This document shows, piece by piece, positions 3,183 to 58,604 of a DNA stretch of 64,000 bases (its first letter is position 1; each line of letters starts with the position of its first letter). The translations under genes were made by a program, and so were the position numbers. The notes below the pieces were generated by a model that saw only the letters and a list, made by a program, of their open reading frames with translations, made no database searches and was not told the origin of the DNA. Location of the stretch: assembly GCF_964194155.1 (NCBI RefSeq), contig NC_135897.1:74834001-74898000 (forward strand), given 5' to 3'. This stretch comes from Cetorhinus maximus (taxonomy: Eukaryota).

Positions 3183-3314
3183 ATAATTAAACTCAACCGT
3201 CGACTCCAGCTCCTGGAGGAAGAAAACAGAGAGCGCACGCGTCGAGAAATCTTTATTTACTCAATCACAGTGGGGTTCTGGTTGATCAATAGCTGGCTTT
3301 GGTTCCGGCGCTGA
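3183..3314 (+). CDS. MFF: Mitochondrial fission factor, last coding exon (coiled coil plus C-terminal tail anchor)
   Basis: AG at 3181-3182. Translates IIKLNRRLQLLEEENRERTRREIFIYSITVGFWLINSWLWFRR*, the hallmark MFF C-terminus; TGA at 3312-3314. Confidence 0.97.
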   Translation: MIKLNRRLQLLEEENRERTRREIFIYSITVGFWLINSWLWFRR

Positions 3315-3677: not shown

Positions 3678-3683
3678 AATAAA
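3678..3683 (+). terminator. Possible proximal polyadenylation signal of MFF
   Basis: AATAAA about 365 nt after the stop codon, followed by a G/T-rich stretch near 3695-3720. Confidence 0.35.
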
Positions 3684-4257
3684 GCTAACAAACTGGGGTT
3701 TTTTTTTGAATTTATGACTTATTGATCAGAAGAATTACATATAAATTTCAGGAGTTTTATGTAAACGGATGTACATAAACGTATTGTGTATGTATTCCAT
3801 TGTCACATGAAGATGAATTTCTGGTTATGGGTCCCTATGTTTTCTGTTTTTGCACTGAGTTTGAAAGGAATACTGTGGGTAAGGCAATTAAACCTTTCCT
3901 TTTTGAGTATGCATCAAAAATGTATCCTCCTTTCATTTTGAATTTTTGTCATGCGAATCTACCATCTGGTGGGGACTGATACATATTTGGTTGTGCACTG
4001 AAATGCCAGTATGCTTGCCTTTTAGCTCCTAGCATTCCTGTGCTCCACTGAAAGCAATTAGCAGCATAGGGTGCGAAGAGTTGAAGCCAACCCCCAGTAT
4101 TTCATTTGAACATCTATCCTCTAAAACTGTGTGAATGGATCTGTTCTGTTAGTTAAAAACAAAAAGCTAAAAGCTACTGCGGATGCTGGAAATCCAAAAC
4201 AAAAACAGAATTACCTGGAAAAACTCAGCAGGTCTGGCAGCATCGGTGGAGAAGAAA

Positions 4258-4300
4258 TCAGTTAACGTTTCGAGTCCTCATGACCTTTCGGCAGAACTGA
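4258..4300 (-). ncRNA. Minimal hammerhead motif, antisense arm copy
   Basis: Reverse complement reads TCAGTT-CTGCCGA-AAGGTC-ATGAG-GACTC-GAAA-CGTT-AACTGA. Confidence 0.65.
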
Positions 4301-4472
4301 GTATAGTTAGGAGAAAGGTGAAATATAAGCTGGTCTAAGGTGGGGGGGCGGGGGGGAGAGAGAAGTTGAGGGTGGGGTGATTCACCCCACAATCACCCCA
4401 CCCTCAACTTCTCTCTTCCCCCCGCCCCCCCACCTTAGACCAGCTTATATTTCACCTTTCTCCTAACTATAC

Positions 4473-4515
4473 TCAGTTCTGCCGAAGGGTAATGAGGACT
4501 CGAAACGTTAACTGA
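4473..4515 (+). ncRNA. Minimal type I hammerhead ribozyme motif (Penelope-type, core CUGCCGA)
   Basis: TCAGTT-CTGCCGA-A-GGGT(AATGAGG)ACTC-GAAA-CGTT-AACTGA: stem I TCAGTT/AACTGA, stem II, GAAA, palindromic ACGT stem III, predicted GUU cleavage triplet ending at 4509. Confidence 0.7.
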
Positions 4516-5049
4516 TTTCTTCTCCACCAATGCTGCCAGACCTGCTGAGTTTTCCAGGTAATTCTGTTTTTGTTCTGTTCTGTTAGTACTTCACTGCAGT
4601 AGAATTCTCCAAAAATTGTTTGTAAATATATGCAAAGAAGCAGGTTGAGGGGAGGGGGTGGGGGGGGGCGCGGCGGGATATGTTTTTCCATGAATGCTGA
4701 AAGAGGCCATTGTGCAGCTTTGACCTAACGTATTCCATTAATTTTTGGATCGGAAAAGTATTTACATTGTAAAGATTTCAACTAAATGATGTATCTCTGA
4801 GTATATTCTCTACTTTGTACTTGACCTGCAGATACACAAATTTAAATCTTGACCTTGTTAAAGATATTTACTGCAGGAGCGTTAAATGCAAACAACTTTA
4901 AAGGAAGCATACTTCTAGGTTTACGCTATGTAAATTTTTAAAGTAGCAAACTTTTTTTTCTATTGTACCTTTTATGTGAAGAAAGCTTACGCAAGATTAT
5001 CAGAAGTACAATTGTGTGTGTAAATATAGTTGACTCTATACAATGTGGC

Positions 5050-5059
5050 AATAAATAAA
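5050..5059 (+). terminator. Likely distal polyadenylation signal of MFF
   Basis: Overlapping AATAAATAAA ending an AT-rich UTR-like stretch with TGTA motifs, followed by GT-rich TTGTGTTTGT. Confidence 0.6.
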
Positions 5060-5144
5060 ATTAAGTCTGAATATTGTGTTTGTCATACACGCTGGGTGTG
5101 AAAAAAAATTTTTTTTAATGTAAATCTGTATCTGTCTTGTTGGT

Positions 5145-5800
5145 TGGCCGAGGAAGGGAAGAAAATAGAATCACTGGACTAGGTAATCCAGAGGCCTGGA
5201 CTAATAATCTAAGGAACCTGAATTCAGTTTGAAGACAGTTTGAGAATTTGAATTCAGTATTTTTCTTTTTAAAATAAAAACCTGAAAATAAAAAATCTGT
5301 TACCAGCAAAGGTCATTACAAAGCTGTTGTTGTAAGAACCAAACGGTTCTTTAGAGAAGGAAACTTGCTGTCTTTACCCAGTTTGTCCTATCTCTGTAAC
5401 CTGCAGCCCTACACCCTCCCAAATCTCTGCACTGTTCCATTCTGGCCTCTTGCACATCCCCGATTTCCATCATCCAACCATTAGCGGCCAAGCCTTCAGC
5501 TTTCTAGGCCCTGAGCTCTGGAATTCCCTCTCCCATTTTACTCCTCTCTCTTTTAAGATGCTCCTCCAAACATGCCTCTTTAACCAAGCTTTTGGTCACT
5601 TGTCCTACTATCCTGAGTATAGTTTCATTTTTATTTTATGTTATATGTGACTGTCCGATCCCACACCAATGTGGCTGAGTTAACTATCCTCTGAAGTAGC
5701 CTAGCAAGCCGCTCAGTCGAAGGCCCACCACCAGCCTCTCAGGGCAACTCGAGCTGATTAATAAATACTGGTCTTGGCAGTGGTGTGCATGTGAATCAAT
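5145..5800 (+). mobile_element. tRNA-headed SINE interrupted by an L2 3'-tail fragment (~5395-5645)
   Basis: CTGGACTAG-TAATCCAG head motif and body shared with other SINE copies; L2 tail CTGCAGCCCTACA...CTCTTTAACCAAGCTTTTGGTCA inside it. Confidence 0.6.
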
Positions 5801-6299
5801 TAATTTAAAATAAAATCATAATTGAAGTCAATTATAACATCATTAAAGAAGATAGACCAAATAAATTATTTTCTGATCTGGGGATTCTGGAAGCTTTTTA
5901 ACCCATAAGCATCCAAGCCAGGTTCTGGTTAATGTTTTAATTTCTGGAGTGTTTTTCTGTGATTCAGCAGGGATGTTGATTGGCACAATTTCCTTCTGTG
6001 CTGTAATTCCATGATTAATAATATCTCTCTAGTAATTTCTACACCAATAATAATTCCATGATTAATCAGGGACTAAAGTTTATTCTAAATTCAGAAATCG
6101 AGGTGATGGGTTATAGTGTAGAATAGGAGTGCCCAACATTGGGGCCATTATGCAACCTCTGACAATATGGCCCTTGAAGCCCAGTTTTATTTGGTGGTTT
6201 GTCCCATTTGAATTCTGTGCGCCTGGAGATTTAAAAAGGGCTGCTGTTAGCATTGTTGCCTCATTGGTGAATAAATCCTACATCATAATCTGTCTTTCT

Positions 6300-11410: not shown

Positions 11411-12454
11411 TTTCACCCCTGCACTTTTTTAACTCCTCTAGGCTTTCTGCAGTTTTGAGCTCTCAATATCTGACATAAGTTTCCTCTTTCTTGCCTTATC
11501 CTATCCTGTATGCTCCAGGGGCTCTAGGTTTGGGAGTCCCACCCTTTTTCTTTGTGGGAACATATTTGTCCTGAACACTCACTCTCTCCTCCTCGAATGC
11601 CTCTCACTGCTCTGACACTGATTTATCTTCAAGTAGTTGTGTCCAGCCCATTTATGCTAAATCACACCTCACCTTAGTAAAATTGGCCTTTCCCCAATCG
11701 AGAACTTCAAACCCTGGTCTATCTTTGTTCTCTTCCATAATTATGCTAAATCCAACTTACTAATGATCACTACCATCAAAATGCTGCACCACTACACCCC
11801 TTTTACCTGCTGAATTTCATTCACTAAAACTAAGTCCAAAACTGCCCCATCTCTTAAAAAAAGTTAGGATGAAAGGTCATCAACCTGAAGCTTTAGCTCT
11901 CCACAGATGCTGCCAAACCTGCTGAGTGTTTCCAGCATTTTTTGTTTTCATTGCCCCTTCTCTTGTTGGACCTTCCACACAGTAGCTTGAAAAAGCTGCC
12001 CTGAATTTATTTTAAGAATTCTGCACCCATTATATCTCTATCCCCTCTTTGGGAGGTCCAGAGTACACTCCCAGCAGTGCTATTGTCCCTTTGCTTTTCT
12101 TCAATTCAACACGTGACCTCATTTGTTGATTCTTTTTTGCCTCTCATTCCTCCTCACAGTTGCTTTGAAATTGTTTCCTTAATCAATAATGCAATCTTCG
12201 TCCTCTTTTGTATTTTTTTCTATGCTGTCTGAAAACCTGAAACCAATCTGCCTTTTCTGCCTTTCTTTAAGCCATCTTTCAGTAATAGCTATGGTATCAT
12301 CTTTCCGATATCTGTACCCTCAGCTCATCTGCTTTATTCCCTCGACTTCTTGCAGCTTAAGTTATGAAAAGTATGTCTGGTTTCCACTTTGAGTCCAACT
12401 TCTTGTCTGTACATGTCATAAGGGTGAGTTTCAGACTGCTTTTTGGCTTCTGGT

Positions 12455-15436: not shown

Positions 15437-15879
15437 AATAGCACTGGGTTTATTCCCTGTTCCGGCTTGGGACCTGCCTCCTTGCCCTGCCTGTGGTGGA
15501 GTTTGTGGTGCTATGGGTTGGACCTGCCTTCAGGCAGAAAACTCAAGAGAAGCTTTGGCTAAATTTCTAGATATGTATGAATTGGTAATTGGGTGCAAAC
15601 AACTTTTAGGTTTTAAAAACTTATGAATTGAAAGGAATAAACAAATAAAATGCTTCAATTCTGATGAGGGCCATCATTGTTCTTAAATGGAAACTCTCTC
15701 TCCACAGATGCTGCAATGACCTGCTGAGTGTTTCCAACATTTTCTGTTTTTGTTTCAGATTTAGACCACCTTTAGTATTTTGTTTTGTACTGTGCTGCAA
15801 CTGTTCATTAATGAGTGAGATTTTCTACTTCGTGATATTAGCTTCCCTATTTTTGGTCAGTGCCAGCACCATCCGCAAA

Positions 15880-23574: not shown

Positions 23575-23710
23575 TGCTCTGAAGAGTCACACTGACCCGA
23601 AACGTTAACTCTGTTTCTCTCTCCACAGATGCTGCCAGACCTGCTGAGTTTTTCCAGCATTTTCTGTTTTTATTTCAGATTTCCAGCATCCGCAGTATTT
23701 TGCTTTTATT
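23575..23710 (+). mobile_element. Short Penelope-terminus-derived element with a hammerhead-like core
   Basis: CTGAAGA-GTC-ACACT-GAC-CC-GAAA-CGTTAACTCT followed by the family tail CAGATGCTGCCAGACCTGCTGAG...TTCCAGCATCCGCAGTATTTTGCTTTT. Confidence 0.8.
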
Positions 23711-30964: not shown

Positions 30965-31416
30965 CTGTATCAAACGGGAGCCGAAACAAGTATTCAGAAA
31001 TAACTACTCTGGAGGTAGGAATCTGTAGAACAGACTATCTTAAAAATATTCAACAGGAATAAACAGATGTGCGATTGAACTGAAACTGCACAGAAATGCT
31101 CTGGCATTGTGGGCAAACGTAAGTTTTAAAAACCCCAAATGAGTGTGGAGATGATTGAATTTTCCGTTTTTCATTTGTCTACAATTTTAGCCACATAATA
31201 ACACGGGAGAAGTATTCCAATGTAATTATGCTGAAGATTAAATTTAAAACAGTCTCTGGCTAAATGTTGCTTTCGAAGATAGCTAAGGGCACAAAATACT
31301 AAATATGTCCTTCTGCTTGTATCTTCCAGTGAATCAAACGAAACAGAATCAGAGTTCTTACAACATTGTTGCCTCATGCCTTAAGAACCTCGTGCGGATG
31401 GACCCACAGGAAGACA

Positions 31417-31604
31417 AATAAAAACAGAATATGCTGGAAATACTCAACAGGTCAGGCAGCATCAGCAGTGGAGAGAGAAACGGTTAATTCTCTTGAAAGG
31501 TCATCGGTCTCTGTTTCTCTCCCCGAAGTTGCCTGACCTGCTGAGTATTTCCAGCGTTTTCTGTTTTTATTTCAGATTTCCAGCCTCCACAGTGTTTTGC
31601 TTTT
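31417..31604. mobile_element. Penelope-terminus fold-back element in TM4SF20 intron 1
   Basis: Inverted arms AATAAAAACAGAA..GCTGGAAATACTCA..CAGGTCAGGCA / TGCCTGACCTGCTGAGTATTTCCAGC..CTGTTTTTATT. TSD CCACAGGAAGACA (31404-31416) / CCACGGGAAGACA (31605-31617). Confidence 0.8.
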
Positions 31605-35000: not shown

Positions 35001-36489
35001 TGTGAACATTTAGTTCATGGTTCATGTGTTTTGGAATATACCTTTTAGTTTTAGAATATAATTTTAGTTTTAGGAATTAAAGTTTTTTTGTAGAAAATGG
35101 GACAAATGCAATTAAAATCAGAACAGAAGAGATGGAGCTATAAAATAGTAGATGGGCTTACGTAGCTAGAGAACTGGAGACGTAATGTTTACACTGCTTG
35201 CAAAGACATGGAGCCCAGAGAGATGGTTTTGCTTTGGGAACTGGAGCTAAATTAGTTTAAAGCATTTGGTGAATATTTGATTAACAGGGGGCACTGATGG
35301 TAAAATTCTCTGCTTAAACTAAAAGCCTCTATGTATAATCATCCCTATTAGACTACACAAAAAAATTTAAGTGGCAGCAACTGGTGCACTGAAAGGTTCT
35401 AAAACCCATTTAATTCACCAGGTCAAAAAAATTGTAAATGAAGGATAGTTAACTCAAAGGTCGGTTGGAGGATAGCCCTGAGCAGGCTATGTCATCATGA
35501 AGGTGGGTAGAGCTTAGGAAGGTTCTCTGGTTTCAACTTACCTGGGTGTTAGCTGAGAGAGTTTGTAGTTAAGGTTGATGTGTCTTTTAAGAGAATTCTT
35601 AGGGGAAGTAGGAAGTAAACATGAGTCCATAACATGCATAGTTATAAACCCTAATGTTAAGTTAATAGTGCTTGTTTTGTTTAAGTCTTTTATATACAAT
35701 AACATTTGTTTTGTTTAAAAAAAATCAAATATTGTGACATAGCTTTATTGGTTAAAATTAGGTATTTTGATTTATTTTTAAATGTTAACAGCCCTTAACC
35801 ACATTGTAACAATGAGCATAGCCTGGCACTTAAACAAGACATTGTGGTATGTTCCCCAAGTGGACATTCTGCATTTGTAAATTTAGTGACTGATAGATCA
35901 CGTGATAATGATGATCAGGAGACCACAGCTGAACCTGATCCCACCAATATCCACATTTAAGTGCTTTCCACCAGGTCCTCTTTGATTAAGAATAATCAAA
36001 TTGTATATTGCACATTTCATCCATCTTATAATTAACAAATAAAAAAATTAAACTAAATAAAACATGAAACATAGAATCTACTACAAGGAACAAGTCCTTC
36101 GGCTTTCTCAATGCAGTATTTTGTACTAGCAGTACACATTGACAGCTAGAATACACCAGGTCCTTTCTGATTAAGAATGGGAACTGCTGATTTTCTTCCT
36201 CCTCCCTGTCTTTGCTGATGCCAATTTATGTGTCACATTACAGCTAATTTTGAACAAGGATCGTAAATTTGATTTGAATATATGTGAGTCTAGACTGTAA
36301 CTGCCTCAGTTATCATTTTATAACTGTGCATGTATGGTGTAGGCATGCAGGAACCACTAAGTGTTGACTTATTTCTAGATATTCCCTTCTTTCATGAGAT
36401 GACATGACAGAGTGAACCCCTATTCTAAAACAAAAACAGAATTACCTGGAAAAACTCAGCAAGTCTGGCAGCATCGGCGGAGAAGAAAT

Positions 36490-36530
36490 CAGTTAACGTT
36501 TCGAGCCTTCATGGCCCTTCGGCAGAACTG
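36490..36530 (-). ncRNA. Minimal type I hammerhead motif in the Penelope 3' terminus
   Basis: CAGTT-CTGCCGA-A-GGGCC-ATGAA-GGCTC-GAAA-CGTT-AACTG: 5-bp stem I, 5-bp stem II, palindromic ACGT. Confidence 0.75.
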
Positions 36531-36893
36531 CAGCATAGTTTCAACAAGGGAGAAATATAAATTGGTTTAAGGTGGGTGGGGGTGGGGGGGGGGGGGGGGA
36601 AGAGACACATTGAGGGTGTGGTGTGAGCAGATAATCAAAAGATGTCACAGACAAAAGGATCAAAGAGGTGTTGAAGGTGGTGGTCTTTGTCTGAGAAAAG
36701 TGCTAATTAAGAATGGAAAACAGGATATTCAAAGTACAGCTCTAGTGGGGGTGGGGTGGAAAGACTAAAGGTTTTAGTTTTAGATTTAAAAATAATGGAA
36801 ATAGGTGGGGAAAGAAGAATCTATATAAATTATTGAAAAAAAAAGCGGGTGGGGGGGGAAAAGAAACGGGGTGGGGATGGGGGGAGGGGGAGT

Positions 36894-47485: not shown

Positions 47486-48197
47486 ATGAGAACAGCACGG
47501 AAGTAAATACTGGTTTTCTTAAAAACGTTAATAACATACAGTGCAGAACTTTCATATTGTAAGTATTCTATAGCATTATAATTTAGATGGAGGGGGGGGA
47601 CACAGTATGTGATTACTAATCCATTTGAAAAGGGGCCTTTCAGCCATAACAGTTTGGCAACTACTAGAAAATTGAACTTTTGCTGCCAGTGGGGACACTT
47701 GACTGGTGGCAGAACATAAAAAGAATGTGAATTTGGGCACCCTATGATTTTCCAACCATTAACAGGAAATGCACAACAGAATCAGCATATTCAAAAGAAA
47801 AATTGCTTAATGTTTTATGTAGGCTCCTTAGGAGCTGATATTGTCAAGCAGAAGAAAGGGAACAAGAATTAATTGGGAAAGAGTTTGCATCTGTTCAGTG
47901 TCTTTCAGGTTATTCCAAAGTGCTTCACAGCCAGTGAATTACTTTTTGAAGTGTAGCCACGAATGCAAGTACATATGGTATATGAATGTTAATTATTGTC
48001 ACTAAGGGAGAGCTGTTGAGCTTACCAACCTTTAAATAGATCTTAAATGCAATAAACATGTAAGAAGGATTAAATACTGTGCAAAGATCATATCAGTTAA
48101 CTGTGTGAAAAGTGGAAGGATGAGTTAGACATAACTGCAGAATAGTAAGGGAGTGCAGTGGAATTTCAATAGGAGAACCCAGCTGGTGTTTCCAGGA

Positions 48198-48325
48198 TAA
48201 AATAAGATACTGCGGATGCTGGAAATCTGAAATAAAAACAGAAAAAAAAACTCAGGTCTGGCAGCATCTGTGGAGAGAGAAGCAGTTAACGTTTTGAGTT
48301 TGTATGACTCTTCTTCAGAACTTCA
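48198..48325 (-). mobile_element. Penelope-terminus short element with decayed hammerhead
   Basis: Reverse complement GTT-CTGAAGA-A-GAGTC-ATACA-AACTC-AAAA-CGTTAAC plus the family tail. Confidence 0.75.
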
Positions 48326-56525: not shown

Positions 56526-57876
56526 AAATAGGCTAGGAATAGCCTTTTCGAAATCACTAACCTTGTCCACAAAATTTGAACAGGGCAAAGCAGAAAATAA
56601 GTAATATAAACGCTGATAGAACTTGGCTGCTTGGTCTTTGGGGGAAAGTGAGACAGTTAGTTAACAGTTAGTTAAATTGTAGCATGCAGCATGTTCCACA
56701 ACCTGTTGATGTACATTCCTGGACTCCACTGTATTCAATCATTTTGATCATGGAATAGCCCCCCCATGGAGCACTTCATAGCTTGTGCTTTGTTTCAACA
56801 CTCAGCTTCAGCTCAAGAGTGCCTTGTGATGACACCTAATATAATTTGCTTTTGAATATCCTATAAACGAGCCATGCTGTAGACCTTACTCAATATTATA
56901 TTTTGCGCCTACACATGGAAGCATACAGTATCCTCTGCTCTAGTGCTATTGTTTTCAGTAACCATCCATCCAAACTCATTATTACATTATTACTTTCTAT
57001 TCGTATAAAGCTCATTAATACTACTTTTTCAGTTCTGTTTTACTGATGATCTAGCTACATTTGCATTTATCATTTTAGGGAAATGCTTTAAATAGTTTTT
57101 GTTTAGGTACCAGGTAAAATATTAATGCAGATTAGTGAGGACAATGAGGCAGAAGTATTGCAGAAAACTGAAAACTCTTCTCCAGAATGAATGCCATGGA
57201 AATTACAGTAAATGTTAGGATGTGGCAATAATCGGTGTGTGTCTCTGCAGATTAAACTTGGCAATAATTGAAGATCACAGGTTAAAAATAGATTTGTTCT
57301 GAGCATGAAAATTGTTTTGTCAGCAAATTTATAAATAGCTTGAATCATGATGTATAACTGCAATTTTATGAATATCTTTTTATCTTATACTGTCTCTTCT
57401 TTGTCCACAATTACCGCCTCCTTTATGAGGAGCTTGCATCAACCAGGAAGGAGTTGAAATCTCCTAAGTCTATTCTAATTGTTTGCTCAGTTCAGAAATA
57501 CATCTAATTCCTTTTTGAATCATCCAGTCTGTAGTCACTGCATTATTTTTTTTCCTTTTGATTCAGCAAGTTTTATCCATCAGCTAATAATCTACCTTAA
57601 AAAAAAACTTAACTTAAAGTCTTTACTTTACCTCTGCCAAATGACTGAAACCCTGTGGAACCTTTCCACCTTTCTGTTGTCGTTGCACTGTTTTTTTTCA
57701 ATTGGATGCTGTCAATCAGATGTATCGTTTTGTTCCCCGGAACATTGGACCTGCTTTCAAAATTGTGAAACATCTCTTCCAAGCCAAATGTTTTACAAAG
57801 CTTCAACGTATGATAAATCCTTGAAAGAAACTACACATAAAGCAGAATAAGTCTTGTAAATGAACTATTTAAAACT

Positions 57877-57976
57877 CAGCCCTGAAGAAGAGTCATACGG
57901 ACTCCAAACGTTAACTCTGTTTCTCTCTCCATAGATGCTGTCAGATCTGCTGAGTTTTTTCAGCATTTTCTGTTTT
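57877..57976 (+). mobile_element. Short Penelope-terminus element with TSD
   Basis: CTGAAGA-A-GAGTC-ATACG-GACTC-CAAA-CGTTAAC (GAAA mutated). Direct repeat TATTTAAAACT at 57866-57876 and 57977-57987. Confidence 0.8.
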
Positions 57977-58604
57977 TATTTAAAACTATTATAGTTTTTA
58001 TGTAACCAGATTCGCTGGAGATTGTTGAAAGACAGAAGGTAAAAACTTGCATGCTAGGATCCAGCCCTACTGCTAGTGGGGAAAAATGTTTAATTTCTGG
58101 AGAGAAATAGAAGAGTAAAAAAGTAAAATAACATTGGGAATGAGACACGTTGACAGATTTACCTGAACCTCCAAGAATTACACTTGCTATAAAAAGAAGT
58201 TTGAATTTTTCTCTTTAAATGCATCCTTGGCAAAATTCATGACATTGTCTTTTGAATGTAATTGATAAAAACAGATAAGGCTGGAAATAAACATATGTAA
58301 AGAGAAAATACATGAATCGTCAGCTTGCCTCTGTGTTATTGCTCTTAAAAGCACAGAATGATTACAGCACCGAAGGTGGCTATATGGTCCATGTTGGTTC
58401 TCTGCAAGAGCAACTCACCTACTCTCACTCCCCCACCCTTTCCCTGCATTTTTTTTTCTCTTTGGGTGCTTATCCAATTCCGTTTTGAAACTCCAGTTGA
58501 ACCTCTTACCAACACACTCTTGGGCAATGTATTCCAGATCCTAACTACTTGCAGCATGAAATTGTTTTTCTTTAAGTTGCCATTTGTCCTCTTGCCAAGC
58601 TATT

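Follow-up and report, generated by a model that had tools for sequence, protein, structure and literature searches.

The fold-back insertion in the 3′ untranslated region (UTR) of the MFF gene of Cetorhinus maximus is, with a probability that we put at about 0.85, a routine 5′-truncated insertion of a Neptune-type Penelope element, in which two pLTR ends face outward between 14-bp target-site duplications (TSDs), and which would give read-through MFF transcripts a 185-bp duplex, a likely editing substrate in which a hammerhead-like motif is predicted to be buried and silent. All positions given here are those of the window, that is, the whole stretch of 64,000 nucleotides that was analysed.

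Anatomy of the insertion

The last coding exon of MFF occupies 3183–3314 on the plus strand and includes the stop codon at 3312–3314. The translation of 3183–3311 matches the Pfam family Miff (E 2.5e-19) at profile positions 249–291 of 291, the C-terminus of MFF. The insertion starts 826 nt 3′ of this stop codon and is bracketed by two copies of TCTGTTCTGTTAGT at 4140–4153 and 4574–4587. An earlier note on this DNA had reported a 13-bp TSD. The duplication is present, but its length is 14 bp, i.e., the 13-mer plus one T, and this extra T can equally be counted as the final base of the right arm (4574).

Both arms are 5′-truncated copies of a pLTR. The left arm (4198–4382, minus strand) is antisense to MFF and 98% identical to the best other copies in the genome, and the right arm (4391–4574, plus strand) is in the sense of MFF and terminates at the short one of the family's two 3′ end points, with homology to the family beginning at 4385. 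The two are separated by an 8-nt spacer, CACCCCAC (4383–4390), which is the exact reverse complement of 4372–4379 and whose final 6 nt also match the family sequence 5′ of the right arm. When the reverse-complemented left arm was globally aligned with the right arm, four substitutions and one gap were found in 185 columns, in agreement with the near-perfect inverted arms around an 8-nt spacer described before. A feature absent from that description is a one-sided Penelope tail on the minus strand (4154–4197), the 44 nt by which the long 3′ end point of the family exceeds the short one, as judged from two clusters of end points across copies; this tail stays unpaired in the hairpin. The RNA folding that had been proposed as a check gave −374 kcal/mol for 4141–4587 (z −37.6), and none of 100 shuffled sequences was equally stable.

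Rfam returned no hammerhead family for the insertion among 100 matches at E ≤ 1. The best 12 of these 100 matches were all to miRNA-precursor families, and an identity as a miRNA precursor was rejected, as the scores were under the gathering thresholds and the matches are of the generic hairpin kind. Just 3′ of the insertion, a G-rich run, GGGGAGGGGGTGGGGGGGGGCGCGG (4649–4673), is complementary to the C-run of the right arm and is a possible G-quadruplex candidate in the long UTR.

Palindromes are a known assembly hazard, which has been noted for these very elements (bioRxiv 2021.04.23.441226), and the fold-back might be an artefact of the assembly or of a chimeric read. We give this hardly any credence: the TSD is exact, the tail is asymmetric and ends at the family's two end points, the arms carry five differences, the same form is found at many loci, and the left junction recurs independently as a 49-bp copy on contig C23. 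This junction copy (L062:1501–1549; G000:C23:11259938 onward) reproduces window 4113–4161 with 48 of 49 positions identical and lies inside an old repeat on another chromosome, where 41 bp of the MFF flank including the TSD plus 8 bp of the Penelope tail replace ~25 bp of the related repeat copies. Its appearance is that of a templated insertion made when a break was repaired, from a DNA or RNA template. At 4123, the C23 copy has G in common with all three related organisms described below, and the present locus has A; because the junction-spanning copy still has the relatives' G, the insertion is likely older than the G-to-A change. Two X18 DNA contigs at 4113–4153 were considered as an empty allele in this organism and rejected, as their loose letters match the junction copy on C23; the remainder of the flank had no coverage in X18, which carries no weight either way.

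Assignment to a Penelope element

When the genome (3.99 Gb in 5,087 contigs) was searched with the left arm plus tail, 569 candidates were obtained, 40 of which were scored, and copies up to 98% identical were found elsewhere. Sister copies carry an open reading frame (ORF) with a YIDD reverse-transcriptase (RT) motif, CX4CX2C and GIY-YIG, and this ORF ends ~290 nt upstream of the arm. The GIY-YIG match of L002 was at the Pfam cut-off (E 1.4e-4). L111 has an open frame of 860 aa with YIDD at 505, for which the matches to RVT_1 (E 7.8e-6) and GIY-YIG (E 1.4e-3) were both below the cut-off, and with CPRRRCNTC at 726, a zinc-finger-like linker motif (CX2-5CxxC) between RT and endonuclease (EN). 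Among the four loci extended to 6 kb (L109, L110, L111 and L112), one, L109, is a partial tandem, in which 1829–2547 repeats 5135–5852 at 98% identity 5′ of the ORF start; arm and tail lie 37 nt before the ATG of the ORF, and the tandem copy runs past the tail into the ORF start. Inverted copies were seen in L110 and L112.

Because the sister copies carry an ORF with RT and GIY-YIG, and arm and tail precede this ORF in L109, the arms are best read as the pLTR end of an EN-positive Penelope element. The CX2-5CxxC linker motif was defined by Craig et al. as common to Neptune and Nematis (bioRxiv 2021.04.23.441226), and the putative zinc finger seen here points to Neptune or Nematis. The Penelope origin suggested in the earlier note is thus borne out by the RT/GIY-YIG ORF of the sister copies, the partial tandem of the pLTR and the inverted copy with tail and TSD. 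A non-LTR retrozyme, with head-to-tail non-coding tandems and canonical hammerheads, was considered and rejected, as the arms stand in inverted orientation and derive from the end of an element that codes for protein.

Inverted pLTRs, a one-sided tail of 30–40 bp and duplications are known for this class of Penelope elements (Arkhipova et al. 2013, PMC3846280; Craig et al. 2021, bioRxiv 2021.04.23.441226). As far as these sources describe it, the inverted-pLTR unit of EN-positive Penelope-like elements shares with the MFF unit the head-to-head inverted, 5′-truncated pLTR copy, the tail at one end, the TSD around the whole unit and the partial tandems, which occur here in sister copies. In contrast to it, the MFF unit is reduced to two pLTR ends, its tail measures 44 nt, against 36 nt in older subfamilies, and the TSDs of the present family are sharply 13–14 bp, whereas those of the rotifer examples are 8–10 bp.

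Two near full-length Penelope copies, L109:1829–5852 and L111:2738–5317, are ~98% alike; the partial tandem L109 has an early stop and a frame change near the ORF start, and the 860-aa frame of L111 is open. These two copies suggest recent activity of the family. L012 shows tandem internal duplications 5′ of the arm, which affect a stretch of the Penelope ORF between the RT and EN regions, and L017:2014–3227 is a palindrome of at least 1.2 kb that is 98.8% self-complementary, adjoins a Penelope end and was not recognised as part of an arm. The window itself contains older pLTR remnants of 73–85% identity (36424–36623, 23575–23709, 31416–31604, 48197–48322, 57874–57981, 11898–11948 and 15699–15762), and one of them contains a fold-back of its own, now decayed (31416–31572). 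At 23579 there is a related motif, whose core reads CUGAAGA.

Recurrence and age of the fold-back

The fold-back is the routine insertion form of this Penelope family. A 24-mer from the motif had 2,720 exact matches in the genome and a wider 34-mer had 16,230, with 0 for the reversed-pattern controls. Among the first 100 matches listed for the 24-mer, adjacent motifs no more than 3.5 kb apart formed 21 minus-then-plus pairs, no plus-then-minus pair and one same-strand pair, and the outward-facing pairs hold 42 of these first 100 matches.

Junctions were surveyed in loci L001–L102 excluding L061, a duplicate of the present locus. The sample is biased, as L001–L030 were picked for likeness to the present arm, and the flanks were 1.5 kb. 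Inverted arms abut each other at 32 junctions, 20 of which have TSDs of 13–14 bp. Seven rows with a duplication shorter than 11 bp or with ends outside the two clusters were dropped, and the other 25 of the 32 join one tail end to one short end with a TSD of at least 11 bp. The arm reaching further 5′ in these 25 was the short arm in 15 cases and the tail arm in 6, and the two were equal in 4. These numbers (42 of the first 100 matches listed; 25 of 32 junctions) give no support to the notion that the fold-back at MFF is a special structure, as the same architecture is what the family routinely produces.

The youth of the insertion, which had also been proposed, was supported at the level of the subfamily: the arms belong to a recent subfamily, and their private changes against 28 other copies of it are one substitution and a change in C-run length in the left arm and four changes in the right arm. 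Of these 28 copies, partly chosen for likeness, 23 differ from the column majority by 0–3 in 125 columns, and we hold with fair confidence that the subfamily is young, if undated. The arms may have been homogenised by conversion.

A possible route of insertion

Such units would form in the following way, which we propose: the endonuclease of the element would nick both target strands ~14 nt apart, and one cDNA would be primed at the long start point and so carry the tail. Its counterpart would be primed at the short start point, which lies 44 nt further in, and the two cDNAs, having stopped early, would be joined head to head. At the present locus, an 8-nt snap-back (4383–4390) would supply a 6-nt microhomology for the join. 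The two matches of the spacer described above fit such a short snap-back. The 15/6/4 split of the longer arm means that no single fixed snap-back direction explains all junctions, and judging from the skew of 15 to 6, self-priming or snap-back may contribute in many copies.

In vitro work has shown cleavage of both strands and their extension from two internal start points, by which the tail is defined (PMC11167929). The element used there, Anolis Poseidon PAc (Frangieh et al. 2024, PMC11167929), shares with the present family, as far as that account goes, the two internal start points of reverse transcription, the cutting and extension of both strands and a hammerhead close to the ORF start. 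PAc belongs to the Poseidon clade and has its start points inside the ORF, whereas the linker zinc finger here is of Neptune type and the end points lie upstream of the first ATG. The pairing of a long with a short end together with a 13–14-bp duplication constitutes genomic support for two-strand priming, a mechanism put forward on the basis of in vitro experiments.

The hammerhead-like motif

The right arm contains a minimal type I hammerhead-like motif in the sense of MFF (4473–4515, plus strand). Its helix I (4473–4478/4510–4515) has 6 bp, the core CUGCCGA (4479–4485) is followed by an extra A (4486), and helix II (4487–4501) has its fifth pair broken by a private A at 4491; GAAA (4502–4505) and C-GUU (4506–4509) follow, with U as H17 and with loop III absent. 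The corresponding motif of the left arm (4258–4300, minus strand), which is antisense in MFF mRNA, has a private G10.1-to-A change at 4286. G12 A13 A14, A15.1-U16.1 and H17 of the consensus are present in GAAA-C-GUU at 4502–4509, as are the features of the minimal type I form: helices I and II, the extra nucleotide after A9, G10.1-C11.1 and a palindromic helix III stub. The consensus core C3 U4 G5 A6 N7 G8 A9 is absent from both arms, in which C replaces A6. The earlier note had placed a hammerhead in the right arm and its antisense in the left; both motifs are there, but with the core CUGCCGA rather than CUGANGA.

GUU is a weaker cleavage site, and the subfamilies show a succession from UU or CU at positions 6–7 with a GUC site and a 4-bp helix I to CC with a GUU site and a 6-bp helix I. 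A6 occurs in 44 of the 16,230 family matches and UC at positions 6–7 in 72, and the first 100 matches listed have UU (75), CU (16) or CC (9) at these positions. A pyrimidine at core position 6 is a family-wide trait. Of 111 copies, 103 have T-A and 5 have C-G as the fourth pair of helix II, and in the youngest subfamily helix I has grown from four pairs to six. The helices of the motif look maintained family-wide, one or two events that are weak signs of selection on the RNA of the element, and because they look maintained at this level, the motif probably does something for the element. A systematic A/G discordance between the arms at position 10.1 was considered as a mechanistic signal and rejected as an effect of query selection; in an unbiased pattern search, the A variant was 1 of the first 100 matches listed.

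The minimal hammerheads that metazoan Penelope elements carry (Cervera and De la Pena 2014, PMC4209133) share with the present motif the type I topology in the pLTR, the extra nucleotide between 9 and 10.1, G10.1-C11.1, the palindromic 15.2/16.2 and the lack of loop III, and motif pairs on opposite strands 100–700 bp apart were already known from them. The difference lies in position 6, which is a pyrimidine family-wide here, whereas a core variant described in that paper is U3-A8. A search of the literature on shark Penelope hammerheads, A6C, and Penelope with CUGANGA gave no pyrimidine-6 Penelope core, and the supplement of PMC4209133 may hold one. This family-wide core is the sole element of our analysis for which no description was found in the literature searched, and searches that use CUGANGA miss these motifs. 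A natural hammerhead that likewise has C at core position 6 (A6C) is the one of phage Bcep176 (Naghdi et al. 2020, PMC7151607). The ribozyme of Bcep176 is complete, single-copy, cuts as a monomer and prefers Mn2+, whereas the MFF motif is without helix III closure and buried.

To what extent can the motif fold in its transcript? The computed pair probability of the hammerhead helices reached 0.13–0.22 when a 61-mer was folded by itself; for the arm, the complete insertion and each of three co-transcriptional prefixes it was 0.000, and forcing the hammerhead fold within the hairpin carried a penalty of 73 kcal/mol. The active fold is thus predicted to be inaccessible, which agrees with the masking of the motif by its antisense arm that the earlier note had foreseen. 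A latent self-cleaving switch built on this masking is not supported. The core has C6, loop III is missing, there is one sense copy and helix II has a private mismatch; without loop III, a partner copy would be needed. Minimal hammerheads tested singly in vitro did not cleave (PMC4209133), the Anolis motif cut only with its protein (PMC11167929), and A6C cripples cleavage in Mg2+, which Mn2+ rescues (PMC7151607). Self-cleavage of MFF mRNA is very unlikely.

A more elaborate version would be that editing or a helicase opens the duplex and that the hammerhead, aided by the Penelope protein or by another copy acting in trans, then cleaves the long MFF mRNA 3′ of 4509. Helix I with its 6 bp is retained in the sense arm, as are four pairs of helix II, C3-G8, GAAA and G10.1-C11.1; the protein of a lizard Penelope is reported to assist cleavage (PMC11167929), and natural C6 hammerheads exist and can cut with Mn2+, which counts against our reading of the motif as silent (PMC7151607). 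We nevertheless regard this version as scarcely credible, as the defects just listed are joined by the GUU site and the 73 kcal/mol penalty, the antisense arm is transcribed first, and in the Anolis RNA-seq, as reported, no reads ended at the hammerhead site (PMC11167929). If a masked motif of this kind did cleave MFF mRNA, it would represent a new type of mRNA switch coupled to a transposon, but the evidence speaks against this. Extended to the family, the idea would be that the pyrimidine-6 hammerhead of a vertebrate Penelope family with more than 16,000 copies cuts only with its own protein or Mn2+, and that sense copies in host 3′ UTRs become cleavage sites after editing loosens the antisense clamp, which would tie host mRNA turnover to retrotransposon activity and poly(A) choice. 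We mention this as a highly speculative long shot.

The insertion in MFF transcripts

Poly(A) hexamers are located at 3678, 3887 (ATTAAA), 5050, 5054, 5273 and 5287. The first is a candidate proximal signal (AATAAA, 3678–3683, plus strand), which is followed by a U-rich stretch, and the overlapping AATAAA pair at 5050–5059 (plus strand) is a candidate signal of a long isoform, whose use is inferred. The insertion lies between the stop codon and these distal hexamers (5050/5054), as had been stated.

If a proximal signal (3678 or 3887) were used for nearly all mature MFF mRNA, the insertion would be excluded from it and effectively intergenic, with no consequence at the RNA level. The AATAAA at 3678 with its U-rich stretch is canonical and has no substitution listed in the contigs of 3/3 related organisms, and a housekeeping mRNA that would otherwise carry a near-perfect duplex could come to use proximal ends more. 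Set against this are the runs X3, X6 and X11, which belong to other organisms and whose nature as RNA is a guess. In each of them, one contig passes through 3678 uninterrupted and with no loose end, and by their record coordinates these contigs extend ~759, 355 and 443 letters beyond 4153; such contigs give neither ends nor levels. Taking both sides together, we consider this exclusion unlikely, though a serious candidate. A long 3′ UTR isoform of MFF spanning the insertion point, assumed in the earlier note, is to this extent plausible, by analogy with relatives' contigs that pass 3678 and 4153 in runs guessed to be RNA.

Compared with the left flank, the contigs of these relatives (organisms A, B and C) show 17–20 differing sites. 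From their record coordinates, we infer that the three relatives are without the insertion, because a contig would be unlikely to run unbroken across a near-perfect palindrome that belongs to a high-copy repeat. The insertion accordingly looks lineage-restricted. If the sites are empty, simple arithmetic would put the contig ends at about 4942, 5030 and 5346, in the neighbourhood of the distal signals.

On the preferred reading of a routine Penelope insertion, an MFF transcript that reads past the insertion would fold into the 185-bp duplex, a passenger structure of the long isoform that would bind ADAR and other duplex-binding proteins, with an effect on MFF output that would be at most modest; transcripts ending after AATAAA 3678 would be without the hairpin. 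Inverted Alu pairs in 3′ UTRs are ADAR substrates. An editable duplex in the long isoform is plausible. Palindromic repeats of similar size, such as the 200-bp Harbinger of Xenopus, are heavily edited, and 200,171 hyper-editing sites were reported for elephant shark brain (PMC5625713); because of these two precedents, editing would be the expected fate of the MFF duplex. The Harbinger-type palindromes (Porath et al. 2017, PMC5625713) resemble the present one in being self-complementary repeats of ~200 bp with a short loop in a transcript, here a predicted one. The MFF palindrome differs in that it arises from the retrotransposition event itself.

The hairpin might also have been co-opted as an isoform-specific regulator of MFF, which would lower the output of the long isoform by duplex binding, editing or small-RNA production and would be chosen by the poly(A) site. 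Its position between two candidate poly(A) signals, the high stability of the duplex and the precedent for editing of palindromic repeats are all consistent with such a role. We judge it improbable, as the private changes per arm are at the level of other copies with none compensated, thousands of fold-backs in a 4-Gb genome would place some in 3′ UTRs by chance, and the insertion looks lineage-restricted. Nothing in the analysed data indicates selection for a regulatory role.

Taken alone, the MFF locus carries little weight: Penelope fold-backs probably number in the thousands, and this one happens to fall in a 3′ UTR. What matters more is that each such insertion is a ready-made near-perfect duplex, so that the family is likely a major source of endogenous double-stranded RNA and of editing in this organism.
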